Of a stretch of 64,000 bases of DNA, positions 22,425 through 63,700 are shown piece by piece. Positions within the stretch are counted from its first letter, which is position 1, and every line of letters starts with the position of its first letter. The position numbers and the translations under genes were made by a program. This DNA is from an uncultured Poribacteria bacterium. GTDB taxonomy: Bacteria; Poribacteria; WGA-4E; WGA-3G. The notes under the pieces were generated by a model. The model saw nothing but the letters and a program-made list of their open reading frames with translations. It was not told the origin of the DNA and did no database searches. The stretch lies in the NCBI GenBank assembly GCA_951813565.1, contig OX638351.1, forward strand, positions 3,648,001 to 3,712,000, written 5' to 3'.

Positions 22425-22693
22425 CTTCAGTCCCGACAAATGCCATAAGCGCATTTGGCGTTGATTTGGTAGGGACGGTATGTTTATAGAAAATGATTGG
22501 ACGAGCACTCTTTAGTCCCGACAAATGCCGGACGGGGAATGCCAAAAGGCATTCATACCCGGTGAATGACTAAAGACGAATGCGCTTGGTAGAATACGCT
22601 TTTGGTATTCTACATGATTCGCCATGATTCATACCGTTGATTTCTTGATTTGGCGCATTTGGCGTTGATTTTGTAGGGACGATATGTTTATAG
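22425..22693. repeat. Two GTCCC..GGGAC hairpin repeats, each interrupted by CCAAATCAACG-type micro-elements (22436-22469; nested set at 22521-22673)
   Basis: The uninterrupted form GTCCCTACGGGAC is at 58242-58254. The nested block is the reverse complement of about 58066-58214. Confidence 0.75.
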
Positions 22694-32306: not shown

Positions 32307-32494
32307 TACCATTTCTAAAAAATGAGACTTCATTGTGAAATTATCGGTTCAAGCTGTTGAAGAATGTCCGAGGCGCCAAATGCCAAACGCGCATTTGGCG
32401 TTGATTTGGCAATGAATTGCGCTTGGTGAATGTACGTATGACATTCACATTAAACGGGTTTTTGTTAATGAAAGGCGATCAATTAGAAATGTTA
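32307..32494. mobile_element. MITE family C (TIR TACCATTTCT, TAA TSD) carrying a REP with two micro-element insertions
   Basis: TAA|TACCATTTCTA...TAGAAATGTTA|TAA. Near-identical reverse copy at 54693-54860. Confidence 0.78.
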
Positions 32495-33831: not shown

Positions 33832-33917
33832 AGAGGCGACGAATGCCATAAGCGCATTTGGCGTTGATTTGGCAATAAATGCACATAGTGAATGTGCGTC
33901 CGACATTCACATTAAAC
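33832..33917. repeat. REP carrying a 34-bp micro-element (33839-33872) and a class-2 hairpin unit
   Basis: Same architecture as 32371-32455. Confidence 0.65.
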
Positions 33918-45485: not shown

Positions 45486-45506
45486 ATAATCCATGAGGAG
45501 AAAATT

Positions 45507-45854: not shown

Positions 45855-45930
45855 CATTCGTAGAAAGGTCCCATAGCGTATGGGTAATATGCTGCTATGC
45901 AGGCAAAGCAAATCTACCTTATCTAAGACA

Positions 45931-46113
45931 ATGAAACCTCATATTGATACGAGCGGAAAAGTTTACGTTAATGGATACCGTCGATGTGGTGGTACTTACG
46001 TCAAACCCTATTGGCGAAAGCAGCCAACGAGACAGATTGGTGCGCGTAAACATGTCCCAATAAGGAAAGAGCAACTTGCACTTTTTAAATTAAGTGTTCC
46101 GTTAGATAAGTAA
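45931..46113 (+). CDS. Small basic protein with a VxGYxRxxGTYVxPYxR motif
   Basis: VYVNGYRRCGGTYVKPYWR resembles a recurrent small-protein motif. Confidence 0.45.
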   Translation: MKPHIDTSGKVYVNGYRRCGGTYVKPYWRKQPTRQIGARKHVPIRKEQLALFKLSVPLDK

Positions 46114-46154
46114 GCAAATATTAAAAATATATCAAAAATCTATTAGGATAAATT

Positions 46155-47375
46155 ATGACGTGTTTTTTGCGAAGCTTGCAAGTTGCCTATCTCACTTCGC
46201 GTCGCTTGCAAGCTGCAACAATATTACTGTTTTTGATTACAAGCACCTCGCTCTTTGGTGATGTTTACCGCATTAAGAAAGGGGATAGCCTATTAATTGC
46301 AGTAATTGGACAGCCAGAATATTCACAGTCGGTGATGGTTCGAGAAGATGGACGAATTAGTTACTTCGGCGGCGATTTGCAGGTTGCTGGAAAAACAACT
46401 GAAGAAGTTAATCGGATTATCCAAAACTTTCTATTAAAAGAGAGCCTTGTTAATAATCCGGTAATTATGGTCTCTCCGATATCTCAAGAGAATAGTGTCT
46501 ATGTCGGCGGCGCGGTAACCACTCCTGGCCGCTATGGTATATCCCCAGAAACTGATATTGACTTATCTCGCGCAATCGCTCTCGCTGGTGGGATGACAGA
46601 GAACGCTGACGTTCAACAGGTTCAATTAATACGTTTTAATGCTATTACACAACAAGAAAAAATCACTCAGAACACTCCTTCAGAAGATGGAACTGAGAAA
46701 AAACCTGCCGCACCTATTGAAACTTACGACCTGTCAACAAACCAACCTTACCGTGATATTCGTGTAAATACCAACGATTTGGTGTTTGTAATGCCGCTCA
46801 GTGTAATTGAAGTCCAAGGGGAAGTAAAGACGTCAGGAAAACTATTTATCCGAGAAAAAATCAGCATAGCTGATGCATTAGCAAGAGCTGGCGGATTCAC
46901 TGAGGCGGCTGATTTGACTGTCCTGGTGAAAATTAATAAGGAAGGTATACTCACTGAATTGAGTGTCACCGAACAATTTTGGAAACCGACTGATAAAAAC
47001 GGGACAGAAATCTCTCTATCCGATGGTGACGTTCTATTTGTTCCGAATGCGTTTAAAATAGAACCTATTTATGTCACAGGTTATGTGCGTACACCCGGTG
47101 CGCAACGCGTTCGAGGTCCGCTGACGTTACAGAAAGCAATTGCATTGGCAGGAGGCCTTGACAAAGAAGCAAACCGAGAAAAGTTTCATATCCATCGCCA
47201 CGATGGCACAACTACAGAACATCTTTTGAAACCCGGCACAGACACTACTTTACTCTATCCTGGTGACATCTTGGAGATACATAAGCGGTTTCAACTGAAT
47301 TGGGGATTGATTAGCACCATATCCTCTACTGTTATTGCAATAACATATTTCATCGTTAACCTAACTGGCGACTAA
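46155..47375 (+). CDS. Polysaccharide export protein (Wza/Poly_export plus three SLBB domains)
   Basis: YRIKKGDSL, VREDGRIS, three V.G.V..PG...AIALAGG repeats and a C-terminal hydrophobic helix. Confidence 0.8.
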   Translation: MTCFLRSLQVAYLTSRRLQAATILLFLITSTSLFGDVYRIKKGDSLLIAVIGQPEYSQSVMVREDGRISYFGGDLQVAGKTTEEVNRIIQNFLLKESLVNNPVIMVSPISQENSVYVGGAVTTPGRYGISPETDIDLSRAIALAGGMTENADVQQVQLIRFNAITQQEKITQNTPSEDGTEKKPAAPIETYDLSTNQPYRDIRVNTNDLVFVMPLSVIEVQGEVKTSGKLFIREKISIADALARAGGFTEAADLTVLVKINKEGILTELSVTEQFWKPTDKNGTEISLSDGDVLFVPNAFKIEPIYVTGYVRTPGAQRVRGPLTLQKAIALAGGLDKEANREKFHIHRHDGTTTEHLLKPGTDTTLLYPGDILEIHKRFQLNWGLISTISSTVIAITYFIVNLTGD

Positions 47376-47409
47376 TGCTACGTGCTTTCTCACAAATCGC
47401 TGGTGGTGT

Positions 47410-49230
47410 TTAGGAAATGACTAATAGTTTGCCTTGTTGTGGGTCAAAGGTCCGATTCAGATACGTCTTTCCGTTCGCTTTCCAAAAAGTTAACGGTATC
47501 TGTTCTCCTGTCTGTAAAAGCCACTCTTCAACCACTTGTGCTTCACCATCTATCTCGACCAATGTTTCAATCTGCTTTTCTCTGGTGTTGAACAGATAAA
47601 ACGTTTGGTATTTTCCATGCGTTCTGTGATGTACCCGCAATGTTTCCGTTGGTTGTTTCTTCTGCTCTGTATAAATAGAAATGGTTGGCGTAATCCATTT
47701 ACTGAGAAATTTCCTGAGATCCGTTTCCCTTTCTCCTTGCGGACCATCTAATATAGTGGTACGGTGTTTGTAAATTAGGCGTTCCAGTAGATACGGTTCA
47801 AGTCCAACTCGTCCATTAAGTAAGTACGGGATAGGTGCGTTGACAATAAGTCTTCCTTTTGCTTTCAAAAATTCTGTTAAACGTTGTACAGTCATTTCGT
47901 GCAAGGATAGGCAACTGGGAAGTAGCACAAGACGATATTTCTTTCCATTGAGACAGATCACTCCTTCCTTGTTTTCTACGGTGGCATCAAAGAGTTGTGC
48001 TTCAGAGACAATATCAAAATCATAACCCATGTTCCACACTGTCTGGCACAGCCACGCCCAGGCTTTTGTTATGCTGTTCCAATGTTGTTCTTCTGGTTTC
48101 ATCCAGAGACTCTGCGTTGGTGATAACATTAAAATTGGACGTTTTGGATGCCCAACCTGCAACAATTGGACAAAAGAGTCATGTGGATAGGTATCGGAAT
48201 GGTTCTGCCCCACGCGATTTGCTACCCACTGATTAAATCCGAGGGTAGCATCACTGAGGGATTCGGAAGATGTGTGTGTCTCTTTTCTGAAAATTCCGGC
48301 ATGCTGTGTATTACTACACATCGACTTAGCAACAACAAAACGCCTCGGCGTGTCCAACTCCGATGTAATGAGAATTGAACAATCCGCTTGCTCCAAAAGT
48401 GTCCCCAATTCATATTGTAGTGACCTTGCACTTTCTGTTAGTGTTACCGCTAACCTTAAGTTGTGCTGATGACAGAAATTTTTTATTCCTCCCAAGAAAC
48501 ACTTCGCAAATTGTGATGTCAATTCTTGCCAGAAAACACTTCTGATAACTGACGAATTATAGGTTTCAGTAAAAAGAATAGGTAGGAAACTTCCACGCTC
48601 GCCCGAGGAAGTTCTGTGATTATCTTTGAAGTTTTCTTCTTTAATTCGCTCCAGTAGCGTGCCACTCCATGGTACTGATGTTGCATCCGCTTCAAGCACA
48701 GATAAGAAACGTGGCAGTTCAATAGCAAAACCGATTACGGCATCTGTGCCATAAGACTCTACATAACTTGTTAGAACCCGTTTTACAAAGGTTTTAACAC
48801 CAGAGTCGCTAAGTAAGTCATCAGTGTTTTCTTCAGACTGATAAATGTAAAGAATTGTTCTACCACGTAACCGTTCTGCGACTGAAATGTCCTTTGCTAT
48901 ACAACGTTGAATGTAATCAGTGATGTTATAAAATAACGCATCTGTATGTGGTTCTGCAACCAGATAGAATTGATTAAAAAATGCCTCATCGTTTTCATAA
49001 ACATTTCGTAAGTATCCTTGGATAGATGCAGCTGTTTCTGATGCCTTAAAATGAAACTCTATAACCCGTAGTCGGTACCGCGTCTGAATTATTGCAGAAT
49101 CCAATTGGATCCATGCCTGCTTTCTAAACCGAGCAAGTTTGGCTAACGCATCTTGATGTGCTTTTGATTTTTCTATACTTGGATAAGATAGCAAAGCACC
49201 GTTTGGAATATAGGTGAAATTCGTTTTCAC
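47410..49230 (-). CDS. Glycoside hydrolase-like protein (GH106/class I GATase-like trimerisation domain), degenerate
   Basis: FWQELTSQFAKCF..FCHQHNL, GYDFDIVSE, YRLVLLPS, FLKAKG and FYLFN motifs. Confidence 0.5.
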   Translation of the reverse strand: MKTNFTYIPNGALLSYPSIEKSKAHQDALAKLARFRKQAWIQLDSAIIQTRYRLRVIEFHFKASETAASIQGYLRNVYENDEAFFNQFYLVAEPHTDALFYNITDYIQRCIAKDISVAERLRGRTILYIYQSEENTDDLLSDSGVKTFVKRVLTSYVESYGTDAVIGFAIELPRFLSVLEADATSVPWSGTLLERIKEENFKDNHRTSSGERGSFLPILFTETYNSSVIRSVFWQELTSQFAKCFLGGIKNFCHQHNLRLAVTLTESARSLQYELGTLLEQADCSILITSELDTPRRFVVAKSMCSNTQHAGIFRKETHTSSESLSDATLGFNQWVANRVGQNHSDTYPHDSFVQLLQVGHPKRPILMLSPTQSLWMKPEEQHWNSITKAWAWLCQTVWNMGYDFDIVSEAQLFDATVENKEGVICLNGKKYRLVLLPSCLSLHEMTVQRLTEFLKAKGRLIVNAPIPYLLNGRVGLEPYLLERLIYKHRTTILDGPQGERETDLRKFLSKWITPTISIYTEQKKQPTETLRVHHRTHGKYQTFYLFNTREKQIETLVEIDGEAQVVEEWLLQTGEQIPLTFWKANGKTYLNRTFDPQQGKLLVIS

Positions 49231-49417
49231 AACTGATATATCTCCAAGAAATTTGCATATTTGTTGGTTTTGTAGTATACTTTAGAATATGTATTGATTG
49301 GAATCTGTTGCCATTTTAACACGTTTTGTTGACAGATGCAATGCGTTAGTTGTCAACTTGCAAATTCCGTTTGTGGTGAAATACAAAATATAAACAGCTA
49401 CCGGTAGGCGCGCTTTG

Positions 49418-49531
49418 ATGAAGTTAAAAAAAATAAATCGGTAATTTAGCGAGGTTAGAAAACCTCGCCAGCAGCGGGCACATCTGCCTCGTGCGGACAG
49501 AAAATTACCGAAAGAATAAGTTAATCTTCAT
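49418..49531. mobile_element. MITE family B (TIR ATGAAG..CTTCAT) inserted in a REP loop
   Basis: Reverse-complement copy of 5981-6094. The flanks GTAGGCGCGCTTTG | GTAAGCGC rejoin into a REP hairpin. Confidence 0.75.
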
Positions 49532-49604
49532 GTAAGCGCTCAGTAAAGTGTATCGTTAATCATAAATCTGCTATATCGTTTGTAGTTATATATTCATTTT
49601 GAAA

Positions 49605-50846
49605 ATGAGAATTTTAGAGAACCTAATCACAGCATTTTCAGCACTTCGGGCAAGCAAACTCCGTACAATTCTGACGCTCTTAGGGATTACAATCGGAATT
49701 GCAGGTGTGATAGCGATGATGTCGTTAGGTGCTGGCGCCGAAAAACTCATCATGTTGGAATTTGAAAAGATTGGCGGGCCCAGTATGTTTGGTGTCTATC
49801 GTCCAGGAATGATTAGGCGTAATCATCGATGGCAACGCAACACAAGCCCACATTATCTAAATATGACGGATCTACGCGATATTATAGAACAGTGTCCATC
49901 CGTTGAAGTTGCCACCGTGGAAGGCAGTTATTACATCAACTTTGATATTGAGGGAAAACACCGACCTACCTACATGCGTGCAACCACAGTTGAATATCAA
50001 GCAGTTCGCCAATGGCATACCGAAGTAGGTAGATTTCTCGCCGATACAGACATGGACCTCTGGAATAAGGTTTGTGTCATCGGTTCACGAGTTTGGAAAG
50101 AACAGTTCAAGGGGATGGATCCGATCGGGAAAGAAGTTGGAATCAATAACAAACGTTTTACTGTTATCGGAATTATGGAAAGCCGCGGTCCAGGGTTAGA
50201 GGCAGGCAAAAGTGACGATAATATGATTTTCATTCCGATTACAACTGCCCAAACTCGGTTTTGGGGACATGATAACGTTGGACACATTATGGTTCGTGCA
50301 AAAAGTCCGCTTGTGGTAGACCAAGCGGTTAAAGAGGTGCAAACCGTAATTAGACGCAACCACGGTGGGGACGACACCTTTTTTAGAACATGGCAAGCGC
50401 AAAAAGGCATTGAAAGCGCGAAAAAGACGATCTTTATTATTGAGTTGGTGTTAGTTATTATTGCTTCTGTTTCGTTGATTGTTGGCGGCATCGGTATTCT
50501 AAATATTATGCTCGTTTCGGTTACAGAGCGAATACCGGAGATTGGATTACGAAAAGCTGTCGGTGCAAAAAACTACCAAATTCGGTTCCAATTTCTAACG
50601 GAATCGATCCTCCTATGTCTCATTGGCAGTTTGCTCGGTATTGCCTTAGGAGCATTAGTCGGACAAGGTTTTGCGTGGGCAGTCGGCAAATTCATGAGGG
50701 GAATGATCGGATGGCCTTCTGTTGTCACCATAAAATCTGTGCTTATTTCTGTTGCAGCAGGTACTGCTGTTGGCATATTTTTCGGTTATTACCCCGCCAG
50801 TCAAGCAGCAAAATTAAGTCCAATTGATGCTATCCGACATACATAG
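49605..50846 (+). CDS. MacB/FtsX-family ABC transporter permease
   Basis: LRTILTLLGITIG, GGIGILNIMLVSVTERIPEIGLRKAVGA and YPASQAAKLSPIDAIR motifs. Confidence 0.9.
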   Translation: MRILENLITAFSALRASKLRTILTLLGITIGIAGVIAMMSLGAGAEKLIMLEFEKIGGPSMFGVYRPGMIRRNHRWQRNTSPHYLNMTDLRDIIEQCPSVEVATVEGSYYINFDIEGKHRPTYMRATTVEYQAVRQWHTEVGRFLADTDMDLWNKVCVIGSRVWKEQFKGMDPIGKEVGINNKRFTVIGIMESRGPGLEAGKSDDNMIFIPITTAQTRFWGHDNVGHIMVRAKSPLVVDQAVKEVQTVIRRNHGGDDTFFRTWQAQKGIESAKKTIFIIELVLVIIASVSLIVGGIGILNIMLVSVTERIPEIGLRKAVGAKNYQIRFQFLTESILLCLIGSLLGIALGALVGQGFAWAVGKFMRGMIGWPSVVTIKSVLISVAAGTAVGIFFGYYPASQAAKLSPIDAIRHT

Positions 50847-50891
50847 TAATACCTGTTTTGACTGATGATTCTCATTAACAAAAGACGCGTT

Positions 50892-50980
50892 TGTAGTCGA
50901 GCAATTCATTGCGCCTCTTCCTGTGAATCAACGCCAAATAAGTGTTTGGTATTTGTCGGGAGCGAGTTCCAGCTCGCGAC
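50892..50980 (+). repeat. Two REPs, one carrying a degenerate 34-bp micro-element (50923-50956)
   Basis: GTAGTCGAGCAATTCATTGCGCC, then GAATCAACGCCAAATAAGTGTTTGGTATTTGT|CGGGAGCGAG. Confidence 0.6.
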
Positions 50981-51030
50981 TTTACCGAGAAATGGCAAAA
51001 AACGCGGAAACTAAATAGCCTTATGGATGC

Positions 51031-51852
51031 ATGAATGGAACAAGAGCCGTGGAAAAACTTGGCATTATCGCAGGAGCAGGTGAACTTCCAATCCTTGTTG
51101 CGAAAAACGCGGCAGCACAAGGACGAAAACCGATAATCATACAGATCACAAAAACGGATGAACAACGTTTTACTGAAATACAGTGTGAAGTCCATTCTTA
51201 CGGTGTAGGACAGATCCAGAAAATAACACAGAAACTTCTCGATTTAAACATAAAAGAACTCGTCGTAATTGGAAAAATTGAGCCAAGTATCTTGTTACGT
51301 CCCTTCCAAGTTGATGCAACCGCACTCAAGATTTTGGCACAGAATCGTAGCCAAAGCCCCACCTCACTCGTTTCAGCAGTCCTTGAACACTTTCAAAACG
51401 CGGGACTCTCTATCCTAAATCAAGATCATTTTCTATTTGATTTATTACCTGAACCCGGTGTACTCACAAAACGCAAACCGAATGATGCACAGTGGGACGA
51501 TATAAAAATGGGCATAGCGATAGCACGACAGATAGCGAACCTTGATATTGGACAAACTGTTATCATCAAAAATCAGATTATTCTTGCGATTGAGGCTATT
51601 GAAGGAACAGATGCCACAATTTATAGAGGTGGAGACTTAGGTGGGAAAGGCGTTGTGGTTGCCAAAGCCGCATCTGAAAACCACGATTTTCGTATTGATG
51701 TCCCAACAGTAGGTATGCAAACACTTCAGACACTGCATGCTGTCAAAGGAAGCGTTTTGGCAGTTGAAGCAAGACGAACCTTTGTTATGGAGCCAGAGAT
51801 CCTATTTGAACAGGCTGACCGTTGGAAGATTTCGATTGTTGCTGTGGAATAA
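51031..51852 (+). CDS. lpxI: UDP-2,3-diacylglucosamine diphosphatase LpxI
   Basis: LGIIAGAGELP, DIGQTV, AIEAIEGTD and DFRIDVPTVG motifs. Confidence 0.9.
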   Translation: MNGTRAVEKLGIIAGAGELPILVAKNAAAQGRKPIIIQITKTDEQRFTEIQCEVHSYGVGQIQKITQKLLDLNIKELVVIGKIEPSILLRPFQVDATALKILAQNRSQSPTSLVSAVLEHFQNAGLSILNQDHFLFDLLPEPGVLTKRKPNDAQWDDIKMGIAIARQIANLDIGQTVIIKNQIILAIEAIEGTDATIYRGGDLGGKGVVVAKAASENHDFRIDVPTVGMQTLQTLHAVKGSVLAVEARRTFVMEPEILFEQADRWKISIVAVE

Positions 51853-51911
51853 CGAATTCTAAAAGTTATTTGATAAGATAGGTGTAGACACCATCGGAAT
51901 CTGAATAATAT

Positions 51912-51940
51912 TTGACAAACAAAATCGTATATGGTATTAT
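51912..51940 (+). promoter_or_regulatory. Putative sigma70 promoter for ferredoxin
   Basis: TTGACA, 17-bp spacer ending in TGG, then TATTAT. Confidence 0.55.
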
Positions 51941-52010
51941 TGAAGTTAGAATAGCCCAACGCTCATGAGGCGAAATTGGTATAAAGTCTAACGAAAGGAG
52001 AATTTATACA

Positions 52011-52274
52011 ATGACTTATGTAATTTGTGAGCCTTGTATTGACCTCAAGGACAACGCTTGTGTTGATGTTTGCCCGGTGGACTGCATTCATCCGCATCCA
52101 ACTGATGCTCCCGACGAATATGAAGAGGTGAATCAACTGTTTATCGACCCCGAAGAATGCATCGATTGTAGTGTGTGTGAACCGGAATGTCCCGTTGAAG
52201 CGATCTTTATGGAAGAAGATGTCCCTGAAGAATGGGAACATTTCACACAAATCAATGCAGATTACTTTCTTTAA
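52011..52274 (+). CDS. fdxA: 7Fe/8Fe dicluster ferredoxin
   Basis: MTYVICEPCIDLKDNACVDVCPVDCI and CIDCSVCEPECP motifs. Confidence 0.93.
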   Translation: MTYVICEPCIDLKDNACVDVCPVDCIHPHPTDAPDEYEEVNQLFIDPEECIDCSVCEPECPVEAIFMEEDVPEEWEHFTQINADYFL

Positions 52275-52355
52275 TCTCAAAAAGAGGGCGAACGGGTTTG
52301 TTAATTAGGTTTCCTTATCTAACGTCCTGAAAATTAACATCCGTTTTGACTCCAA

Positions 52356-52670
52356 ATGCTGGAATTTCAACCCACCGAAATCAAACGTTTGCCGCATAGT
52401 TTATCAATTCAATGGAAGGATGGACATCGGAGTGAACACACATACCGATTACTCCGAGAGAGTTGTCCGTGTGCACGGTGTGATGCGATAAGACAAGAAA
52501 ATGACCCGTTTAGGATGGTACCATCGGAAGAATATTGGGAAAAATTACATTTGGTGGGGATTCAACGTGTTGGACGCTATGCTATACAGTTAATGTGGAG
52601 CGACGGACACAAGACTGGAATTTATACATTCACCTTTTTACGCGAACTCTCTGACTCAAAGGTTACTTAA
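52356..52670 (+). CDS. DUF971 / GBBH-like N-terminal domain protein
   Basis: WKDGH, LRESCPCARC and VGRYAIQLMWSDGHKTGIY motifs. Confidence 0.88.
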   Translation: MLEFQPTEIKRLPHSLSIQWKDGHRSEHTYRLLRESCPCARCDAIRQENDPFRMVPSEEYWEKLHLVGIQRVGRYAIQLMWSDGHKTGIYTFTFLRELSDSKVT

Positions 52671-52727
52671 GTCACTTTTCTCGCCTCTTTCAACCTGCCA
52701 GTTTTTTTAATCATGATCAATCTAACA

Positions 52728-53333
52728 TTACTCCTCTAACAACTGGGCAACCAAATAACAGTTAGGTGTTTTCTGAACAGCACCGAGTGCCTCGCTAAGT
52801 TTTTTGCACCTTTGCCAATAGTCGGCATACTTCACAGGTTCATAGTTTTTACGTTGTCCGATGAAAGTTTTTTTACAGCAAGCCAATTCCTTGCCGTTAT
52901 CAATTGGATAGCCCCATACACGACATATCACTGGGCGATGTTCATAAACAGAGCATACTCCACCAATAAGCATCGGACATTCGCCAGAAGTTTTCCCTTT
53001 GACCACTTCAATCGCTTCTATACCTGAATCTTTTATCATATTTTCAGCGGTATAACCCTCCGCTTCTAATACTTTGATAGTCCGCTGTGCTTTTTGACGA
53101 ATATGTTCGCGTATCTGTTTTGGAAGTGCGTCCAATGCGGTTTTGAGATCGCGTGCTTCCACTTCACTAATTGGTATTGTTGAAGTGTTAAGGCAGCATT
53201 GAAAACAATTTGTCGGACAAGGAACCCGACCGTATTCTTCTCGTACCCGTTGCACATCTCTATCAATTTCCGCAACAAGTTCGTGATAGACAGTCATTAC
53301 ATGTTCAATTACCTGTTCAGGTTGCGTTTCCAT
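52728..53333 (-). CDS. YkgJ-family cysteine cluster (CxxxCxxCC) protein
   Basis: CPTNCFQCC and CPMLIGGVCSVYEHRPVICR motifs. GAGGAG RBS. Confidence 0.85.
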   Translation of the reverse strand: METQPEQVIEHVMTVYHELVAEIDRDVQRVREEYGRVPCPTNCFQCCLNTSTIPISEVEARDLKTALDALPKQIREHIRQKAQRTIKVLEAEGYTAENMIKDSGIEAIEVVKGKTSGECPMLIGGVCSVYEHRPVICRVWGYPIDNGKELACCKKTFIGQRKNYEPVKYADYWQRCKKLSEALGAVQKTPNCYLVAQLLEE

Positions 53334-54267
53334 CTTGTTTCTCCTCTTCAACAACAGTAAACTCACAGATAGCATGTCGAAAAACTACGACCTTAGAACC
53401 GTTTTTCAACACCATTTTGATTTCATACGGACTGATCCAGTCAACTGTGCCTTGAAAAATTTCGCCTTCACGAAGGATTATTTCAATTGAATTCCCATCT
53501 TTCCGAGCGTGCCGAATTGTTTCTGGATCAATGATATATCCTTCATCTTGAGAGAGAGCGGGTTTGAGTTGTTTCGCTTTAATGTCTTCATTATAGCGAA
53601 GAAGCGCAATTACGTTTTCTGCGTCAACGTCCTTATAGCAATACTTCACCTCAGTTTTTGGTACAATTTTTTCCTTACCGTTACAATTAAGTGTTAATCC
53701 TGAAAGCGTCATTTCTAACACAATAGCAGGCAATTGTACATCATTATAAAGCGCAAAAAACATCGGTGTTTCAAAATTAATTTGCTTAAGGATATATAGG
53801 TCACCGAAACTAAGTTGTCTGGAAGTTTGTTCCTTCTCTTCTGTTACCGTTTCGGTTTGTGTGGTAGAACTTTCACTTTGAGGTCGTTTTCGCGATTGTT
53901 CTTGTGTATATTTAGCATTCGTATTAGAATCCTTGTCCTTTGTTTTATCGGAAAACGACTTATCTTCATCAAAGAACTGATCCTGATTTTGGGCTGGAAA
54001 TCCAGAGTAGCCGCGTGGAATAATAGTTTTACCTTGTCGTAACCACCTTCGTTCTGTCGGTGTTAGCAACACTTCAACGTTTTTAGCGACTAAACCTTTT
54101 TCGCCTTCAACAACGCTATACTTTACGCGTTGCCCAACCCGAAGTTCCTCGTATTCTGCATACTTAATCGCGGAACTATGTAAGAAGACATCTTCCTCAC
54201 TGCTATCTTGTGCGATAAATCCGAATCCTTTATCCAAATTGTAATACTTAATTCGTCCTGTAGGCAT
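53317..54267 (-). CDS. Cold-shock domain fused to two Hfq/Sm-like domains
   Basis: N-terminal GRIKYYNLDKGFGFI..DVFLH (RNP1/RNP2), a disordered linker, then two Hfq-like repeats, the last ending VVFRHAI. Confidence 0.75.
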   Translation of the reverse strand: MPTGRIKYYNLDKGFGFIAQDSSEEDVFLHSSAIKYAEYEELRVGQRVKYSVVEGEKGLVAKNVEVLLTPTERRWLRQGKTIIPRGYSGFPAQNQDQFFDEDKSFSDKTKDKDSNTNAKYTQEQSRKRPQSESSTTQTETVTEEKEQTSRQLSFGDLYILKQINFETPMFFALYNDVQLPAIVLEMTLSGLTLNCNGKEKIVPKTEVKYCYKDVDAENVIALLRYNEDIKAKQLKPALSQDEGYIIDPETIRHARKDGNSIEIILREGEIFQGTVDWISPYEIKMVLKNGSKVVVFRHAICEFTVVEEEKQDGNAT

Positions 54268-54692
54268 TATCTGCTCCTGGGTTTTTCCTCCGCATCGGGA
54301 AGATGCCTATAACCATTCGCGTTCCTGCGCCCAGCATTTAATTGTGGCTGCCTCAAAATGATTAAAAATCTGAAAACAACAAAATAGTACACAACGAGAA
54401 TTTGCCTCGCAACTGAATTGTATGTTTCTTTTGACATAACAACACTTTTTATCTATAATGTAAGCATAGACGTTCTGAACGTTTAAACGTAAATGTCTAC
54501 TTTTTTCTATATCGAATCTTGCTGGAAACAAGAAAACATTTCAAGGCATACTATAGTACATCATAATCTAATGTATTTGTCAAGTATGATTTTTTATTTA
54601 ACATAATTATTCCATAATTCAACCACTTTGACGGAAAACAACTTTCCACCTTGCCCGACCACTACACTGCATCTTAGGAAACAACAAACTAA

Positions 54693-54860
54693 TACCATTT
54701 CTATTTGATCGCCTTTCATTTACAAAAAACACGTTTGTAGTCGCGCAATTCATTGCCAAATCAACGCCAAATGCGCGTTTGGCATTTGGCGCCTCGGACA
54801 TTCTTCAACTCAGCTTGAACCGATAATTTCACAATGAAGTCTCATTTTTGAGAAATGGTA
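54693..54860. mobile_element. MITE family C copy (TAA TSD) with a REP and a 34-bp micro-element (54756-54789)
   Basis: TAA|TACCATTTCT...AGAAATGGTA|TAA. Copy of 32307-32494. Confidence 0.78.
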
Positions 54861-54863
54861 TAA

Positions 54864-55088
54864 TACCAAATTACCCTAAATCGTAGGGGCGGGTCTCTGT
54901 GCCCGCCCTTACCATCGGCAATGAAAACAATGCAATTCTCGTTAATTTGGTATAAGATGTCGCGAGCTGGAGCTCGCTCCTACAGGAAGAAGGAAGTAAT
55001 ACCAAATTACCCTAAATCGTAGGGGCGGGTCTCTGTGCCCGCCCTTACCATCGGCAATGAAAACAATGCAATTCTCGTTAATTTGGTA
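54864..55088. mobile_element. Two identical 89-bp MITEs, family D (54864-54952 and 55000-55088; TIR TACCAAATT, TAA TSD), each carrying a REP
   Basis: TAA|TACCAAATT...GTAGGGGCGGGTCTCTGTGCCCGCCC...AATTTGGTA|TAA occurs twice, separated by another REP. Confidence 0.8.
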
Positions 55089-55138
55089 TAACTCATTCCT
55101 AACGCCTACTATTCAAAAGTCTACATAAGGAGAATTTC

Positions 55139-56428
55139 ATGGCAACAGATTTGACACATCACATTCAGTCTATCCGTTTAGTTGATACACATGAACACAT
55201 GCGGCGTGAAAACGACTGGGTAGAGAATGGTCCCGATATCTTGCAAGACCTATTCGGAAATTATGTGCCAGCAGACCTACATACCGCCGGTGCTACGCCA
55301 CAGGCAATGGAAAATCTGATGGACTCATCTAAAGACATCAAGTCACGGTTTGAAGGTGTCCGAGAAGCATGGGAAGCGACACAATTTACTGGATACGGCG
55401 AAGCAGTCAGTCTTATCGCTAAACATATCTACGGACTTGACGAACTGACTGGTGATGGACTTGCTCAGGCACAAGATAAACTCAAGACAATTCGCACTCC
55501 CGGAAAACGTTATCATATTTTACACGACCTTGCGAATTTAGACCATATCCAAACAGATGATTTCAGCTGGCCGTGTACCCTCGACACCTCTGGCCCCGAT
55601 TTTTTCTTATACGATCTTTCATGGGCAACTTTCTGCAATGGTCAAATTGATCCGAATGCTATCCATGCTGAAACGGGTATTGAAGTCAAGGACCTCGCGT
55701 CGTTGAAAAGCGGCATGGAGGCGATTTTTGCCAAACATGCCTCCTGCGCAATCGCAGTAAAAGCACAACACGCTTACAACCGTACACTTCACTGGATCGA
55801 ACGGAGTGATGCCGATGCTTCCGCAGCGCTCAATGCAGTGCTAATAAAACCAGCCAAAGAAATTGATGAAGCAACACGTCTTTGTCTTGGCGATTGGTGT
55901 TGGGCACGTGGTGTTGAACTCACAATTGAACACAATCTCCCGTTCAAAATACATACTGGCTACTATGCAGGCAACAATCGGATGCCGTTAAGCCGTATTC
56001 CAGCAGGCAATATGTGTGCCTTATTTGCTCGCTATCTGGATGCAAAGTTTGTTCTAATGCACATTGCATATCCCTACAACGATGAATTGGTAGCACTTGC
56101 AAAGCACTATCGCAACATTTGGGTTGATTTTTGCTGGGCATGGAGTATAGACCCTTATAGTTCGCGCGATTTTTTGCGTCGGTGCATTCATGCGGTACCA
56201 TCAAATAAGTTGTTTGCCTTTGGAGGCGATACTGGATGGCCTACAAGTGCAATGGCTTATGCAATTCAGGCACGAAACGAAATTCGACGTGCGCTTGAAG
56301 CCGAAATAGCAGATGGATATCTTACCGAAAAACAAGCGATGACGTTTGCTACGCAGATTATGCATACAAATCAGTACGCTTGCTTTGATGTCAACGGCAC
56401 CCGTGCTAATATTGCCAAAGCAGCATAG
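55139..56428 (+). CDS. Amidohydrolase superfamily protein
   Basis: VDTHEH, KIHTG, LMHIAYP and FGGD motifs. Confidence 0.85.
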   Translation: MATDLTHHIQSIRLVDTHEHMRRENDWVENGPDILQDLFGNYVPADLHTAGATPQAMENLMDSSKDIKSRFEGVREAWEATQFTGYGEAVSLIAKHIYGLDELTGDGLAQAQDKLKTIRTPGKRYHILHDLANLDHIQTDDFSWPCTLDTSGPDFFLYDLSWATFCNGQIDPNAIHAETGIEVKDLASLKSGMEAIFAKHASCAIAVKAQHAYNRTLHWIERSDADASAALNAVLIKPAKEIDEATRLCLGDWCWARGVELTIEHNLPFKIHTGYYAGNNRMPLSRIPAGNMCALFARYLDAKFVLMHIAYPYNDELVALAKHYRNIWVDFCWAWSIDPYSSRDFLRRCIHAVPSNKLFAFGGDTGWPTSAMAYAIQARNEIRRALEAEIADGYLTEKQAMTFATQIMHTNQYACFDVNGTRANIAKAA

Positions 56429-56479
56429 TGCTACTGAGCTTACAATTAAATCTAAAAGTACCGATACATTTTCGGTGCT

Positions 56480-56643
56480 TGTAGTCGCGCAATTCATCGC
56501 GCCTCTTACATTTACAGTAATGCGTTGAAATTATAGTAAAATTCACAATTACCTTTACATTGGCGAGGTTAGGAAACCTCGCCAGCGCATGCGTGTGGGA
56601 ATTGCTGTTCATTGAAATGTGAACATATTATTGGATTTTACTA
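56480..56643. repeat. Uninterrupted REP (56480-56505) plus a MITE-like element (56534-56643)
   Basis: GTAGTCGCGCAATTCATCGCGCC, then TAGTAAAAT...ATTTTACTA enclosing TGGCGAGGTTAGGAAACCTCGCCA. Confidence 0.65.
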
Positions 56644-56693
56644 TAAAAGTGGACCGAAATATATTCATAATTATGTGTTTTCTATAAACGTAA

Positions 56694-57734
56694 TTACGAG
56701 TCGCGCAATTCCTTCAAGCTTTCTGTATAAGGCGCGTGTGCTACACCCTTTTCGGTAATAATTGCCGTGACTAATGAAGCTGGTGTAACGTCAAAAGCAG
56801 GGCTATAGACCTTTACACCCTTAGGTGCGGTCAACTTGCCGAAGCCTTCTGTCACCTCTTCTGCTGAACGTTGCTCAATCGGAATCTCTGCACCGGTTGC
56901 CAGTGCAAAATCTAACGTTGATGTCGGGGCAGCGACATAAAAAGGGATGTCGTGTGCCTGTGCAAGAATGGCAACATTATAGGTGCCGATTTTGTTCGCA
57001 GTGTCTCCGTTTGCAGCAATCCGATCTGCACCAACAATAACGCACTGGATTTTACCCTCTTTCATAACTTGCGCAGCCATATTATCACAGATAAGTGTTA
57101 CGTCAATGCCTGCTTGCATTAGTTCCCACGTTGTAAGGCGTGCACCTTGTAACAAGGGGCGTGTCTCATCAGCGTAAACCTGAATCTGCTTACCAGCTTC
57201 GTGTGCACTGAACATTACGGCTAACGCTGTGCCGTAGTCGGACGTGGCTAATCCACCAGCATTACAATGCGTCAAAATCGTATCGTTTTCATTGAGCAAT
57301 GCCATACCGTGTTGCCCAATAGCACGGCACATCGCTTTATCCTCTTCAATAATTTTCTCTGCCTCTGCAAGCAGTACCGCTTTGAGTTCAGAGACAGAAA
57401 GATGACTATTTTCTTCAGCTGTTTTTGTAATTCTATCAAGTGCCCAAAAGAGATTAACAGCTGTTGGTCGGGACGTTGCAAGATAATCGGTTGCAGATTT
57501 TAGTTCTGCTGCAAATGTTTCATAAGTTTTCGCAGTGGAATTCCATATCCCAAGCACTGCACCCAATGCCCCAGCGATGCCAATTGCGGGCGCACCTCGG
57601 ACGCGCAATGATTTAATCGCCTCCCAAATAGATGGGAGGTCATCACAATAAATCTGTTTGAATTCATTGGGCAACAGTGTTTGATCTATTAACTTAATCC
57701 TACCGTCTGCCCATTCAATTGTTGAAACTGCCAT
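56694..57734 (-). CDS. mtnA: S-methyl-5-thioribose-1-phosphate isomerase
   Basis: VRGAPAIG, RPTAVNL, THCNAG, DETRPLLQGARLT and GDTANKIGT motifs. Confidence 0.96.
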   Translation of the reverse strand: MAVSTIEWADGRIKLIDQTLLPNEFKQIYCDDLPSIWEAIKSLRVRGAPAIGIAGALGAVLGIWNSTAKTYETFAAELKSATDYLATSRPTAVNLFWALDRITKTAEENSHLSVSELKAVLLAEAEKIIEEDKAMCRAIGQHGMALLNENDTILTHCNAGGLATSDYGTALAVMFSAHEAGKQIQVYADETRPLLQGARLTTWELMQAGIDVTLICDNMAAQVMKEGKIQCVIVGADRIAANGDTANKIGTYNVAILAQAHDIPFYVAAPTSTLDFALATGAEIPIEQRSAEEVTEGFGKLTAPKGVKVYSPAFDVTPASLVTAIITEKGVAHAPYTESLKELRDS

Positions 57735-57824
57735 TTTTGCGTTAGTATCCTCCTCTTATAGTGAAACCCATAATTATTTTTACGTTCTTATTCTTATGTG
57801 GATTTCAAACACAAGATAAATTTA

Positions 57825-58810
57825 AGAGGCGCAATGAATTGCGCGACTACAAACACCGCTAACCGTCAGAAACGAAATTGCTGGATTATCTCTTGTAGGA
57901 AGGTTTACAAAGCTTTCCACCACCCCTGGTAGGCGCGTTTTGTAAACGCGCCGTTTATTGTGTCTTAGGTCTGGGCCCGGCGCGTTTACAAAACACCAAA
58001 TCAACGCTATGAATGCCTTTATGGCATTCCCCGTATGGCATGCTGCCAAATCAACGCAGCATGCGCCAAATCAAGAAATCAACGGTATGAATCATGGCGA
58101 ATCATGTAGAATACCAAAAGCGTATTCTACCAAGCGCATTCGTCTTTAGTCATTCACCGGGTATGAATGCCTTATGGCATTCCCCGTATGGCATTTGTCG
58201 GGACTAAAGAGTGTGTCCGCAACGTTTTCTATAAACATATCGTCCCTACGGGACTAAGGAAAATACCGAATTTATTTTTTAATCTTCATGTAAACGCGCC
58301 GTTTATTGTGTCTTAGGTCTGGGTCCGGCGCGTTTACAAAACACCAAATCAACGCTATGAATGCCTTATACCAAATTCATTTGATTCATCGTCTTTACAT
58401 ACCGCTCCGCTGGAGCGGAAGACAGAAAACTCCACGTGCTATAAACATACCGCTCCGCTGGAGCGGAAGAGTAGAAAAAACACTGGAAAAACAAGACGAA
58501 TTCCGTTAATTTGGTATTATGGCATTCCCCGTATGGCATGCTGCCAAATCAACGCAGCATGCGCCAAATCAACGCTATGAATGCCTTATGGCATTCCCCG
58601 TCCGGCATGCTGCCAAATCAACGCAGCATGCGCCAAATCAACGCTATGAATGCCTTATGGCATTCCCCGTCCGGCATTCATCCAAATCAACGCAGCATGC
58701 GCGTATGGCATGCTGCCAAATCAACGCTGAATGCGCGTGTAGGCATTCAGCGGGGTTGAAAACCCGCCAAATGCCAAAAAGCGCATTTGGCGTTGATTCA
58801 CTCCCACAAG
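57825..58810. repeat. Nested pile of REPs, MITEs and CCAAATCAACG micro-elements
   Basis: About 10 (CC)AAATCAACG units, a 69-bp tandem composite, a duplicated REPIN segment, and a family-D MITE at 58369-58516 with a TTA TSD. Confidence 0.85.
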
Positions 58811-58888
58811 AAAGTGTATTCTTAAGTTGACACTTATGGGTAGAGCGAAACACACACCCATCAAATCCATAACTCATCTTTGCGATCA

Positions 58889-60526
58889 TCAAATTGGGCA
58901 GGTCAACTGACCAAGTTCATTCGTTAACCGAAGGTTTTCAGCATAATTTACCGGACAATCAATAACCGAAGGCACATTTTGACTGAATGCATCTTTTAAT
59001 ATTGGAACAAGCTCGTCGCTGCCTTCAACTCGATAACCTTTAGCTCCAAAAGCATCTGCGTACTTGACAAAATCAGGATTTGTGAAATCAATGTATGCTG
59101 GCCTACCAAAACCGTTCATCTGTTTCCATTCAATCAGTCCATAAGCTTCATCGTTGAAGATGAGTGTAACAAACGGCACACCTGTTCGTGTAGCCGTTTC
59201 AAGTTCCTGAGAGTTCATCAAGAATCCACCATCACCGCACACGGCGAGACATTTCCGCTCCGGATAGATGAGTTTTGCTACGAAAGCACCCGGAACAGCG
59301 ATGCCCATAGACGCAAACCCATTTGAAATAATGCATGTATTCGGTTGAGAACACGGATACATACGGGCAATCCACATTTTATGTGCACCAACATCGGAGA
59401 TGAGTATATCGTCTTCTGCGAGTACGGAACGGATATCGCTTAAGATTTTTTGCGGTTTCATCGGGAACTCTTTATCATCGCGATGCTCAGTAAGTTGATC
59501 GAGAATTATTTTCCGCAAGGTGTTTGAAGCATACTCAGAATCTTTTGGATAAATTTCTTGTGCCATTAAATGCCTGATACTCTGTCTAATATTCCCCACC
59601 ATTTCCACATCAGTAACATAAGATGCATCGCTTTCGCTCGGTTCTGTATCAATATGGATCAGTTTTTTGTCGTGATTAGGATTCCATAAGCGCGGATGGT
59701 ATTCCACAATATCGTACCCGATAGCGATGACGAGGTCTGCCCGGTCGAACCCGCATGAGACAAAATCGTTTGCTTGAAGTCCAACGCTGAGGAGGGAGAG
59801 TCGGTGCGTCCACGGAATGCTGCCTTTGCCCATAAAAGTGTGCGCGACAGGGATATTTGTCATCTCGGCAAATTGCGTTAGAATTCGAGAAGCATTTTGG
59901 CGAACAACGCCATTCCCTGCAAGGATAATCGGTTGTTTTGCATCATTGATCAGTTGTGCTGCCCGTTGGAGACAGGACACCACAGGCTCTGCTTCACTGG
60001 GGAAATCATGCCGCATAGGTTCGGCTTCTATTTGCATCTTTGCCACGTCTTCTGGCAAGTCAATGTGTGTTGCGCCAGGTTTTTCACCTACTGCAGTTTT
60101 GAAGGCTTTGCTGATTGATTCAGGAATAATTTCAGGTAGATGAACAAGCGTATTCCATTTTGTCATCGGTTTGAAGACTGAAACCACGTCCATGTATTGA
60201 TGCGATTCTTTGTGCATTCTGTCTAAACTCGCTTGCCCTGTGATAGCAACGAGAGGTGCTCTATCCATATTCGCATCAGCAACACCAGTTACAAGGTTCA
60301 TTGCACCGGGGCCAAGTGTAGCAAGACATACTCCTGCCCTACCAGTTAGACGACCGTAGACATCTGCCATGAATGCGGCACCGCGTTCATCGCGTGTTTG
60401 AATGAATTGGATCTTGGATTCTAACAGAGCATCCATCAAATCCATATTCTCTTCACCCGGTATTCCAAAAATATATTCAACGTCCTCATTCTCCAAACAT
60501 TTCACAATCAGTTCTGATGCTTTCAT
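58889..60526 (-). CDS. ilvB: Acetolactate synthase large subunit (ThDP-dependent)
   Basis: IFGIPGEE, RDERGAAFMA, TLGPGA and GDGGFLMNSQELET motifs. Confidence 0.88.
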   Translation of the reverse strand: MKASELIVKCLENEDVEYIFGIPGEENMDLMDALLESKIQFIQTRDERGAAFMADVYGRLTGRAGVCLATLGPGAMNLVTGVADANMDRAPLVAITGQASLDRMHKESHQYMDVVSVFKPMTKWNTLVHLPEIIPESISKAFKTAVGEKPGATHIDLPEDVAKMQIEAEPMRHDFPSEAEPVVSCLQRAAQLINDAKQPIILAGNGVVRQNASRILTQFAEMTNIPVAHTFMGKGSIPWTHRLSLLSVGLQANDFVSCGFDRADLVIAIGYDIVEYHPRLWNPNHDKKLIHIDTEPSESDASYVTDVEMVGNIRQSIRHLMAQEIYPKDSEYASNTLRKIILDQLTEHRDDKEFPMKPQKILSDIRSVLAEDDILISDVGAHKMWIARMYPCSQPNTCIISNGFASMGIAVPGAFVAKLIYPERKCLAVCGDGGFLMNSQELETATRTGVPFVTLIFNDEAYGLIEWKQMNGFGRPAYIDFTNPDFVKYADAFGAKGYRVEGSDELVPILKDAFSQNVPSVIDCPVNYAENLRLTNELGQLTCPI

Positions 60527-60729
60527 GGTATTACTCCTGAGCACAGCGATAAAAGTTGTTTTTCCTACGCGGATTCAATACAATTAACTATAACAGATTA
60601 AATTTGAAATTGCAATTTTATTGGTTCGTAATAACGCATTCATCACCATTTAAGATTACATTTTACTTTTCTGAAGAAAAAACAGTAGGTTCACAACAAA
60701 AAGGATTAAACGGAAGGTTTTGCTAATCT

Positions 60730-63700
60730 ATGAGGAATTATTCTATTTATTTTTATTTTATTATACTTCTAATATGTTTGCTGAGTAGTATCACGACCAA
60801 GGCTTCAGAACAAATTATCGGTTCATCTCAAACCGATTCAGATTCACATAATCTCTATGAGATAACCCACACACCAAGAGAACTCGTTGTCCGTTTACAT
60901 TCCACTACCTCTTTTGTGCAGTTCAGGGCATTCAGCAAAAAATTAGGTGCAGCATCCGTTTCCCCTGTTTTTCCTCCAACTACTCCTGCGGGGCGACATC
61001 CGTTGCTCAATCGTATTTATCTCGTCCGATTTCCTACCATTTCGCAGTTAGAACAGTTGAAGCAAAAGTATGCGGAACATGCATTAGTTGAAGACGTTGA
61101 AATGAACAGACTCAACCGGTTCTGTGCAGAGACGATCCCTAACGACCCACGATATAATGAACAGTGGAATCTGAAGGCGATGAATTTGCCAAAAGCATGG
61201 CGCATTGAACAGGGAAAACCAAATGTGGTTGTAGCAGTTGTGGATAGCGGTATAAAGAAAGAACATCCTGAGTTTCGTAATCAGCTTTGGCGGAACCATG
61301 GCGAAATTGCTGATAATGGCATTGATGACGATGGAAACGGCTACATTGACGATATTAACGGGTGGGATTTTAGCGATGCACCCACACTCCCAGGACACGG
61401 TGATTGGAAAGAGCGCGATAACGAACCCGATGATGAGACGGGGCACGGCACACATGTTTCTGGAATTATCGCTGCGGAGACAAATAACGGTCTCGGAATT
61501 GCTGGGATCGCTTGGCAGTGTCGTCTGATGCCGCTACGAGCGGGATTTCGGATTGGTGCAGGCGCGTTCCTACAAAATGATGATGTCGCTGCAGCTATTG
61601 TTTATGCCGCTGATAACGGTGCTGATGTTATCAATCTGAGTTTAGGGGATACTGTGAACGCATTTTTAATTCAAGATGCAGTTGATTACGCCTACAATCG
61701 CGGGTGTATCCTTGTTGGTGCTGCCGGAAATTCGCCGGAGCCAGGAGCGTATTATCCTGCTGCGTTGAACACCGTCCTATCTGTTGCTTCGCTGGATAGA
61801 AATCTCCAATTGGGAAACTCCAATTTCGGTGCATCAATAGATATCGCTGCACCAGGTGAAGAAATTTTGAGCACGGATCTCAATACTGGTCAATCTTCTC
61901 CTGGATACGGATATAATTACCGATCTGGCACTTCAATGGCTGCAGCGCATATCTCTGGTGTCGTGGCGTTGTTGGTTTCTGCGAATCCATCGTGCAGCCA
62001 TACAGAAATTCAGCAATGGTTGACGGGTACGGCGAGAGAACTGTCCATAACACATCTCGTGGGAGCAGGACTTGTTGATGCCTACGCTGCATTGACAGAA
62101 CATATCGGACTCACCGCGCATATTACTATTACACCGCCCTCGCAAACTGAAGTATCAGGGAATAACAGCACGATTGAGATTTTTGGGAGTGCTGGAGGCT
62201 CTGGATTTACACAATATTGGCTTGAATACGGTGTTACCGAAACACCTGACCTCTGGTTTCGTATAGGGTTTCCGCAAACCGAACCGAAGTATAACACCGT
62301 TCTTCACGAGTGGGATACCTCAGCGTTGGAGGAAGGCACTTACACATTACGTCTTAGCGTTAAGGCTAAAGATGGAAAATCTATCAGAGACAAAATAGTT
62401 GTTGAAATCTATCATACGCTTCCCCGAATTTCCAAACATGAAGCAGGGATATGGCTTTCAGGAAACTATTATGATACGACTATTATTTGGCAGACAGATG
62501 TGCTAACTGCTGGGGCAGTTGAAATCTTTTCAAAAACAGAAAATCACACAATTATATCCAATAATTCACCGCTACGGGTTGCGCGTTCGGATTCGGTGAA
62601 TCTTCAGCATATCGTTTATTTGTCCGAGTTAGGGTTACCGTCAGGTGAATACATGTACCGTCTGAAGACACAAAACCAAACTGGGGTTATACGGATTGAT
62701 GATAATGAGAGGCAATTATATCCGATTACAGTGCGCGACGAACAAATTCAACCATCTCATCTACTTCAAACAACGTCTGCACAGTTCGGTTTGCACGGGA
62801 TTGTAACATCTAAAGATATAAACGGAAATGGGAAGTTAGAACTGATCGCTGTCGAAACAGGCACATCTTCTACCCATGTTTTTGAAACAGATCAAAATGG
62901 AAATCCAGTAATGATTTTTTTATTAAATCAACCAGTATCGCGACTATGGGCAACCGCAGACACAGATGGTGATGGACTCATAGAACTTTTAGCCAACGAA
63001 TCAGAAGATACATTTTTATTAGAACAATCTGCACCAGGGCAATTCCCGAACGTGCGAATCTGGGATGCTGAGGGAATTTGGGGTGGAACGATCGCGGATT
63101 TGGATTTGGACGGTAAACCAGAAATCTTTTCACGTCATGATGCCACAGATTCTATCTGGGTCTACGAATCAGACGCAAATAACAGTCATAACAACATTGC
63201 AATACTTGAAAATCCAACGCAAGGAAAAAACAAGATTCCAACAAGATTCGCCACGGGTGATTTTGATGCGGATGGACAGAGAGAAATTTTAGCGGGAGAT
63301 AATGATGGCTCACTATTTATATATGAAAATGTGGGAAATAACCAATACCAACAAACGTGGATTGGCACACTTCCGGATGTTATACCGCATCTTTTTGCCG
63401 CGGGAGATTTGGACGGTGATGACATCCCAGAATTTGTTGTTGGTGCAAAGGTTTGGACAACAGAATTTGATCTTCCGCGTCAACATTGGCTTTTTACAAT
63501 TTTCACATCAAACGGCAACGATTCCTATGATATAGTATGGCATCAACGAATTCGCGAACTTCAAGATGGTGAAAGTGGAATAACAATTGCGGACGCTAAC
63601 AACGATGGTAGAAATGAATTGTGTATCGCTGTTTCCCCAAACTTTTACCTCGTTCAATATGATGGGATTACTTTCCGTCCTATTTGGCATCATCCCGCAA

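Follow-up and report, generated by a model that had tools for sequence, protein, structure and literature searches.

Hairpin units of 33 to 36 bp in the genome of an uncultured Poribacteria bacterium are real and mobile: they are very small non-autonomous mobile elements, and element-level insertion is shown because filled and empty orthologous sites lie inside three conserved genes. The window, that is, the whole stretch of 64,000 nucleotides analyzed here, lies inside a single 5.43-Mb contig of the host genome (G000), and sponge metagenome runs contain this contig. Each unit has a fixed AATCAACG head, an 8-bp covarying stem and a terminal CG; the invariant core is AATCAACG, followed by a body of 23 to 25 nt (the 8-bp stem and usually a 7-nt loop) and then CG.

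The host genome contains roughly 500 to 800 copies overall, 508 by a strict pattern, 723 when nested forms are included and 827 by a weight matrix. The sequence CCAAATCAACG occurs exactly 13 times in the window, or 19 times at up to one mismatch against 1.54 expected, and exactly 519 times across the whole genome. The unit pattern was present in all 39 of 39 congeneric genomes, at 8 to 496 copies each, and in 47 of the 48 genomes of the bacterial family. In other families, 10 of 32 genomes gave 1 to 3 pattern matches, which is chance level, and reversed-pattern controls gave 0 or 1. Pattern matches in titled records came mostly from Candidatus Poribacteria; one cyanobacterial match had no hairpin, and none of the 52 matches in viral contigs had a full stem.

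Compensatory changes in the stems, described in the first-pass annotation, were confirmed with 152 distinct bodies picked by head and loop only, with no pairing filter. Watson-Crick cells made up 86.7% of the total versus 69.8% (maximum, 72.9%) in 500 shuffles, and two-sided stem changes numbered 141 versus 53 (maximum, 69), figures that are inflated by kinship among the bodies, although the alternative stems can readily be seen. Fold z scores of the units ranged from −2.2 to −4.2. Only 14 of the 723 units fell within the coding mask, which covers 80% of the genome; as short palindromes of high copy number that are mostly extragenic, the units share the trait of REP-type sequences. Identity with a CRISPR repeat or an Rfam RNA was rejected, since tandem units have no spacers between copies and Rfam covariance models gave 0 matches in the window. 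No published description of this Poribacteria family was found in the literature searched, outside which lay subscription papers and the paper on small dispersed repeats (SDRs).

Filled and empty sites inside conserved genes

Four units of the host genome lie within genes, in the sense orientation and with the reading frame kept. For three of these sites, the best 15 orthologues from the 39 searched were aligned, giving 16 sequences per gene. An lplA-like gene carries an additional 36 bp in frame at T|CG (3 filled and 13 empty alleles of 16), an ogg1-like gene an additional 33 bp in frame at C|A (12 filled and 4 empty of 16), and a pstA-like gene an additional 33 bp in frame (3 filled and 13 empty of 16). 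The fourth in-gene unit lies in a DDE transposase remnant, of which G000 has two copies, both filled. The empty hosts first listed at 58242, ~20472 and ~56497 of the window are all present but are paralogous, not orthologous; the empty orthologous sites are those inside the three conserved genes. At the right junction of the pstA-like insertion, filled alleles read G and empty alleles read A. Most filled ogg1-like alleles retain A, and here G may be a later change or A may have arisen from decay. At the 5′ end of the ogg1-like gene, 11 N-terminal codons are now supplied by an old unit whose divergence resembles that of coding sequence; a more distant clade has a decayed homologue.

The inserts are nearly identical in diverged flanks. 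The three lplA-like inserts are 36/36 identical and the pstA-like inserts match at 33 to 34 of 34 positions (97 to 100% overall), in three non-sister genomes each, while the 90-nt flanks of the same filled alleles are only 68 to 89% identical. The filled pstA-like alleles need three changes on a tree of the downstream sequence, forced by supported branches, and two on the upstream tree, on which there may have been one origin. The lplA-like tree needs three changes, without support, and the ogg1-like tree two. The lplA unit variant is common elsewhere, with 100% matches of 36 to 38 nt in genomes G017, G026 and G014. This pattern may reflect hot spots that tolerate insertion and were hit more than once, precise loss, or cross-species recombination. 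We consider it unlikely that the unit is a minimal single-hairpin ssDNA transposon of 33 to 36 nt with an enzyme of its own, which would revisit the same sites or home base-exactly between alleles and add inserts of 11 to 12 residues to proteins.

At the strain level, 62 of 122 metagenome loci could be aligned to G000, 48 of them without an internal gap. At locus L302, a 69-bp two-unit insert occupies a position at which G000 is empty, with flanks that match over 73 and 364 bp and a left flank that is repeated, and at locus L368 a different outer unit carries a 71-bp nested insert relative to G000; both differences come from short-read contigs, in which chimeras are possible. MITE-type carriers were present only in G000 at loci L338 and L345, one of them with a unit aboard, and because such carriers, including the unit-bearing one, differ between contigs, they inflate the unit copy number. 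An unbiased indel scan gave a noisy peak at 34 to 35 bp. A tandem copy-number difference at locus L359 was set aside as a possible assembly collapse. In the intergenic comparison of G003 with G020, a pair about 97% identical, there was no clean empty site, and one unit was common to both. Synteny between these two genomes extends over only 10 to 20 kb and is rearranged, and intergenic repeat/REP cassettes have been replaced wholesale.

Junction classes and the intergenic pile

Among 550 simple units, the heads were CCA in 328, GTG in 90, GCG in 31, ATA in 20 and AGA in 16. Units with a CCA head (class A) are clean insertions of 34 to 36 bp at N|CG, placed to within a 1-bp C ambiguity. When G000 was searched at one phase, exact empty counterparts turned up for no fewer than 179 of the 328, and for 110 there was none; among their hosts are several REPs unrelated to one another, as well as the loop and the right junction of the unit itself. 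Units with a G head (class B) occupy Y-A-G targets and usually replace 1 to 3 target bases. Their hosts read GTA-GG, ACA-GG or ATA-GG when empty and ...G AATCAACG...CG GG when filled. Empties of the GTG type are rare, at 26 versus 271 GTA in one host, and are absent from the common forms of two others. One target base is usually lost or turned to G, and at times two or three. Class B junctions are exact at the CG end and ragged at the head, which is preceded by a varying 1 to 3 nt; the right junction shows an A-to-G change, and full palindromes reach into the flank at some units.

In other genomes, the base 3′ of CG was G in 63 of 68 matches with a CCA head and in 32 of 40 with an NNG head, a few of these rows being chance matches. 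Both classes share one description, a Y-R-G-R target with a junction that is exact on the CG side and ragged on the head side, to which hosts reading CG-CC and CG-T are exceptions. The first-pass rule of CCAAATCAACG inserted 5′ of CG without duplication therefore describes the main, CCA-head class but not class B, with its Y-A-G targets that lose bases. There is no target duplication beyond 1 bp, although the absence is not complete, given the 1-bp C ambiguity at both junctions. Neither terminal inverted repeats nor the target-site duplication that mark MITEs were found at the hairpin unit. Flanks, once tabulated, were not random. Very small mobile units do enter REPs and each other, as originally proposed, but they are not restricted to repeats: protein-coding genes are also among the targets, so parasitism of other repeats is not obligatory for the unit. 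A RAYT-style guide rule, in which a guide ending in CG gives C|G, fits class A and was not adopted because class B does not fit it.

In the window, class A units lie at 22436..22469 (minus strand; CCA head, 34 bp) in a GTCCCTA|CGGGAC REP host and, in ATTG|CGCCTC hosts, at 32376..32409 (minus), 33839..33872 (minus) and 54756..54789 (plus). These four and 58682-58715 (plus) match their first description, each being followed by CG or the next head. Folded with its target CG, the unit at 54756..54789 has a 9-nt free head and a 10-bp stem. A second copy of the GTCCCTA|CGGGAC REP host contains a 153-bp nested composite (22521..22673, minus strand). At 50923-50956, a CCAAATCAACG unit had been annotated; the head there is a different one, and the sequence is a class B (G-head) unit at 50925..50958 (plus strand) that took the place of A in a GTAGG REP foot.

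Further units form a pile in the intergenic gap between mtnA (methylthioribose-1-phosphate isomerase; 56694..57734, minus strand) on the left and the gene for the acetolactate synthase large subunit (58889..60544, minus strand) on the right. Within the pile, all features but the last are on the plus strand. A GTAG-footed REP with its inverted partner (57929..57994) hosts the first unit, a 36-bp class A unit at 57996..58031 that is followed by an orphan right arm at 58032-58045. A multi-level nested composite occupies 58046..58198: the outer unit consists of 58046-58065 and 58185-58198, the second unit of 58066-58074 and 58160-58184, a GA-head unit (58075-58092 and 58151-58159) sits within the head of the second, and headless sister hairpins (58093-58150) fill the loop of the GA-head unit. 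These sister hairpins are about 27 to 28 bp long, end in CATG, have the same loop type, nest in unit loops and have about 100 matches in G000. An empty GTCCCTA|CGGGAC host (58242..58254) precedes a class A unit (58344..58529) whose loop contains a TA-flanked MITE (58369-58516) bearing two other REPs. In G000, this MITE family is represented by 121 left ends and 105 right ends, and no autonomous partner was found for it. Its terminal repeat is one base off the class A head and begins at the same position, a likeness that may reflect either shared origin or chance.

The 69-bp repeat that follows was correctly read as a 34-bp unit whose loop contains a 35-bp unit; two such composites fill 58544..58681, at 58544-58612 and 58613-58681, the second with a chimeric right arm. 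Next come two class A units of 34 bp and 35 bp in tandem (58682..58750), ending at a CG|GGGTT REP host, so that 58682-58715 is a genuine unit but not the single copy it had been called, being part of a tandem inside the pile. The last unit has a G head (TG) and lies on the minus strand at 58765..58800, in a GTGGGAG|GGGTTTT REP host. This unit, the composite at 22521-22673 (minus strand), the MITE-bearing loop and the segmental duplication that underlies and shapes the pile had escaped the first reading.

In relatives, the gap between mtnA and the acetolactate synthase gene (ilvB) ranges from 60 bp to 5 kb with unrelated content, and the pile is absent from it in all relatives shown. Contigs of two runs span 58289-58394 at single-copy depth with 0 to 1 differences, and an assembly artefact is unlikely at that position. 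Over 45000-61000, contigs of four runs leave the units unresolved because they break at them.

Candidate enzymes and routes of movement

Either an ssDNA HUH enzyme or an IS110-like recombinase had been suggested at the outset as the mover. Y1 HUH genes proved to be common, being found in 36 of 40 genomes, including all of the unit-richest, but none of the 69 Y1 loci examined has a unit on both sides. A unit lies within 500 bp of 5 of the 69 (two rows being one locus), and no unit frames a Y1 gene among 16 further loci listed. Four of the 40 genomes (G001, G010, G023 and G024, with 41 to 136 units each) had no Y1 match. G000 has five IS605-type and five RAYT-like Y1 genes, and an HMM of local Y1 proteins revealed no extra one there. 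Its IS605 TnpA copies have TTAG/TTAA left flanks, unlike the target of the unit; of the TnpA-TnpB copies (L001 to L005 and L391), one occupies, in a near-identical contig, a site from which it is missing in G000. Heads with atypical bodies, which might have marked an autonomous partner, were chance matches in genes among the matches listed.

Many of the 69 Y1 loci have their own GTAG REP, and the GTAG REPs of RAYT subfamilies are the usual hosts of the unit. Roughly twelve RAYT subfamilies occur in this one bacterial family, and most of them have a GTAG REP of their own, which makes for an uncommonly rich REPtron set. A REP with ~190 copies in G000 has an apparent RAYT in another genome and none in G000, and the missing cognate gene for the unit does not, therefore, exclude a rare one.

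We give about an even chance to the reading that the unit is a non-autonomous element moved in trans, as folded ssDNA, by a HUH enzyme (Y1, TnpA/RAYT type) encoded elsewhere. This reading draws on analogy: TnpA-REP severs ssDNA at a dinucleotide next to a hairpin and joins the ends again (PMC3479197 and PMC8266576), and a hairpin carrying a single-stranded tail is the putative intermediate of REPINs (PMC3116915). The unit would insert at short Y-R-G-R sites in REPs, its own copies and genes. An ssDNA intermediate would be expected because a duplex circle of 33 to 36 bp is too short to form, and the hairpin-first strand would be the one that moves. That strand is the likelier substrate because its 5′ end is the exact junction, because class B targets read C-T on it, which is the TnpA-REP cleavage dinucleotide, and because of a wobble bias. 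G·T mismatches on the hairpin-first strand versus its reverse stood at 12:3 in variants with at least two flank contexts, a weak and non-independent count, and a mutation bias could explain them because single-context variants show the same tendency (80:54). The hairpin-first strand would be joined through its CG end to a target 3′-OH and released 9 to 11 nt past the hairpin, which would explain the 0 to 3 lost target bases and the varying 1 to 3 nt before the head. Later amplification would supply much of the copy number, with composites riding inside MITEs or REP cassettes and tandems expanding. There was no replication-strand bias (254/483), a comparison of little power given the weak skew, and no bias of orientation relative to transcription (126:150). 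The main gap of the HUH reading is that simple HUH joining predicts no loss of target bases, yet class B usually loses them. Nor did any intermediate of movement come to light.

The absence of a cognate transposase locus among the Y1 loci examined would also fit capture of a folded oligonucleotide at nicks or forks by a host housekeeping activity rather than a transposase, which we regard as possible but doubtful. The activity could be that of a type IA topoisomerase, or template switching during replication combined with the correction of hairpins. Units occur in all 39 congeners and in all but one of the 48 family genomes regardless of their Y1, RT and IS110 content, and the A-to-G change at the class B right junction and the palindromes that reach into the flank resemble hairpin-templated correction; CGTC repeats, too, are without a dedicated transposase in the portion of PMC3733652 available. 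However, in two genera the head and the length are fixed and the CG-side junction is exact, which suggests dedicated recognition, and 32 genomes of other families that have the same housekeeping enzymes gave only chance-level matches.

The asymmetric junctions and the loss of 1 to 3 nt of target would also suit target-primed reverse transcription, in which a nick would prime the copying of a head-first transcript, starting at its CG end; as in R2 elements, the 3′ junction would then be exact, the 5′ junction ragged and a short stretch of the target deleted. An RNA route has reportedly been proposed for SDRs, and G000 has two reverse transcriptases (RTs). We judge this route improbable. RTs were found in only 18 of 40 genomes and are missing from five of the unit-richest (G034, G006, G017, G061 and G012, with 222 to 496 units each), and both RTs of G000 are CRISPR-adjacent or Abi-like. 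The even orientation relative to transcription argues against it as well, as does the wobble bias, weakly, by favoring the opposite strand. Of the two RTs, one adjoins a CRISPR array (L013, 670-2067 and 2900-3345; array repeat seen 52 times), and the Abi-like one is at L012. Small contigs of G015, G016, G036 and G063 contain many long RT frames of up to 1,436 aa, possibly host-derived contamination.

Passive spread of a few old insertions by movement of MITEs and REP cassettes, tandem slippage and gene conversion accounts for much of the copy number: identical nested composites recur at many loci, unit-bearing carriers are present or absent between conspecific contigs (L345), and intergenic cassettes are swapped wholesale between 97%-identical genomes. 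As a sole explanation it is contradicted, and very improbable, since exact unit-length insertions occur in unrelated genes without REP or MITE sequence and the host contexts are many and unrelated.

An IS110-type recombinase with a short core, which would suit the lack of duplication beyond 1 bp and the use of REPs as IS targets (reported in the text available for PMC3733652), is effectively refuted unless the enzyme lies outside the PF02371 and PF01548 profiles: PF02371 matched in 0 of 40 genomes (controls, 6 of 14) and PF01548 had no match in G000, a duplex circle of 33 to 36 bp is implausible, and the head junction is ragged.

The asymmetry of an exact and a variable end resembles that of IS91/rolling-circle elements, which have a Y2 transposase, an exact ori end and a variable ter end; the PF04986 (Y2, IS91) profile had no match in G000, and its control matched nowhere. 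Cas1-type integration was rejected because there is no repeat-length duplication. Integron attC likeness was also rejected; the sole tyrosine recombinase found is a 207-aa protein, and the unit junctions lie away from what we take to be the attC crossover.

Relation to known small repeats

The closest known system, compared by description only, is the small dispersed repeats (SDR1-8) of Nostocaceae, reportedly described by Elhai et al. 2008 (Genome Res 18:1484) as elements of 21 to 27 nt that nest in themselves and have compensatory stems. SDRs and the unit are alike in being very small, lineage confined and mobile, with a short preferred target and an enzyme that is not known. A length below 100 nt, dispersal, recent mobility, self-nesting and a compensatory stem, all traits of SDRs, are seen in the unit. 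In contrast to SDRs, the unit belongs to another phylum, is 33 to 36 nt long versus 21 to 27 nt, and has a fixed unpaired head, two junction classes and orthologous in-frame insertions in genes. SDRs are cited in PMC3116915 and PMC5861425, and SDR5 prefers HIP1 as a target.

REP/REPIN-RAYT systems resemble the unit in their hairpin, high copy number, extragenic location and dinucleotide-level cleavage rule, as far as the text available for PMC3479197, PMC8266576 and PMC3116915 extends. The unit differs in lacking a GTAG/GTGG foot (the sequence 5′ of the stem is AATCAACG on one strand and belongs to the host on the opposite strand), in having no cognate RAYT locus among those examined, in not forming inverted doublets, and in inserting into the REPs of many different RAYT families. 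With CGTC-tagged repeats and the Rickettsia RPE, it has in common 8-bp stems, no dedicated transposase and a CCA-like end (in the portion seen of PMC3733652), as well as in-frame insertion in ORFs (likewise for PMC3733652 and PMC3184786). CGTC repeats have a CGTC (TGTC, CCTC) tag before an 8- to 9-bp stem and a 4- to 5-nt loop in the same portion of PMC3733652, whereas the unit has no CGTC tag 5′ of the stem, a 7-nt loop and the 8-nt fixed head AATCAACG, and nests in itself.

The unit also differs from IS200/IS605 elements in having one hairpin rather than two ends and a ragged second junction, and the resident IS605 has TTAG/TTAA flanks. PATE is a non-autonomous derivative of IS200/IS605. The likeness to this group lies in the absence of target duplication, the one-sided conserved target bases and a hairpin about 10 nt from the end (in the accessible part of PMC6006769). 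By their defining tests, the unit fails to belong to the REP, CGTC, IS605, IS110 or MITE families. This kind of element has already been described in cyanobacteria; what is new here are orthologous sites within genes, the distinction of two junction classes and a census of candidate enzymes.

To our knowledge, SDRs, RPE and CGTC repeats have no known enzyme, and how repeats shorter than 40 nt move is an open question. The Poribacteria hairpin units supply what these families lacked, namely, orthologous sites in unique genes, some empty and some filled, that are exact to the base, and their two junction classes constrain the chemistry of movement. The host is an uncultured bacterium. The mechanism is testable with oligonucleotides because, besides the base-exact sites and the two junction classes, the genomes that carry the units also encode a limited set of candidate Y1 enzymes. 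The hairpin unit further shows a route by which a tiny element can add peptides to proteins, of which the ogg1-like N-terminus is an old case.
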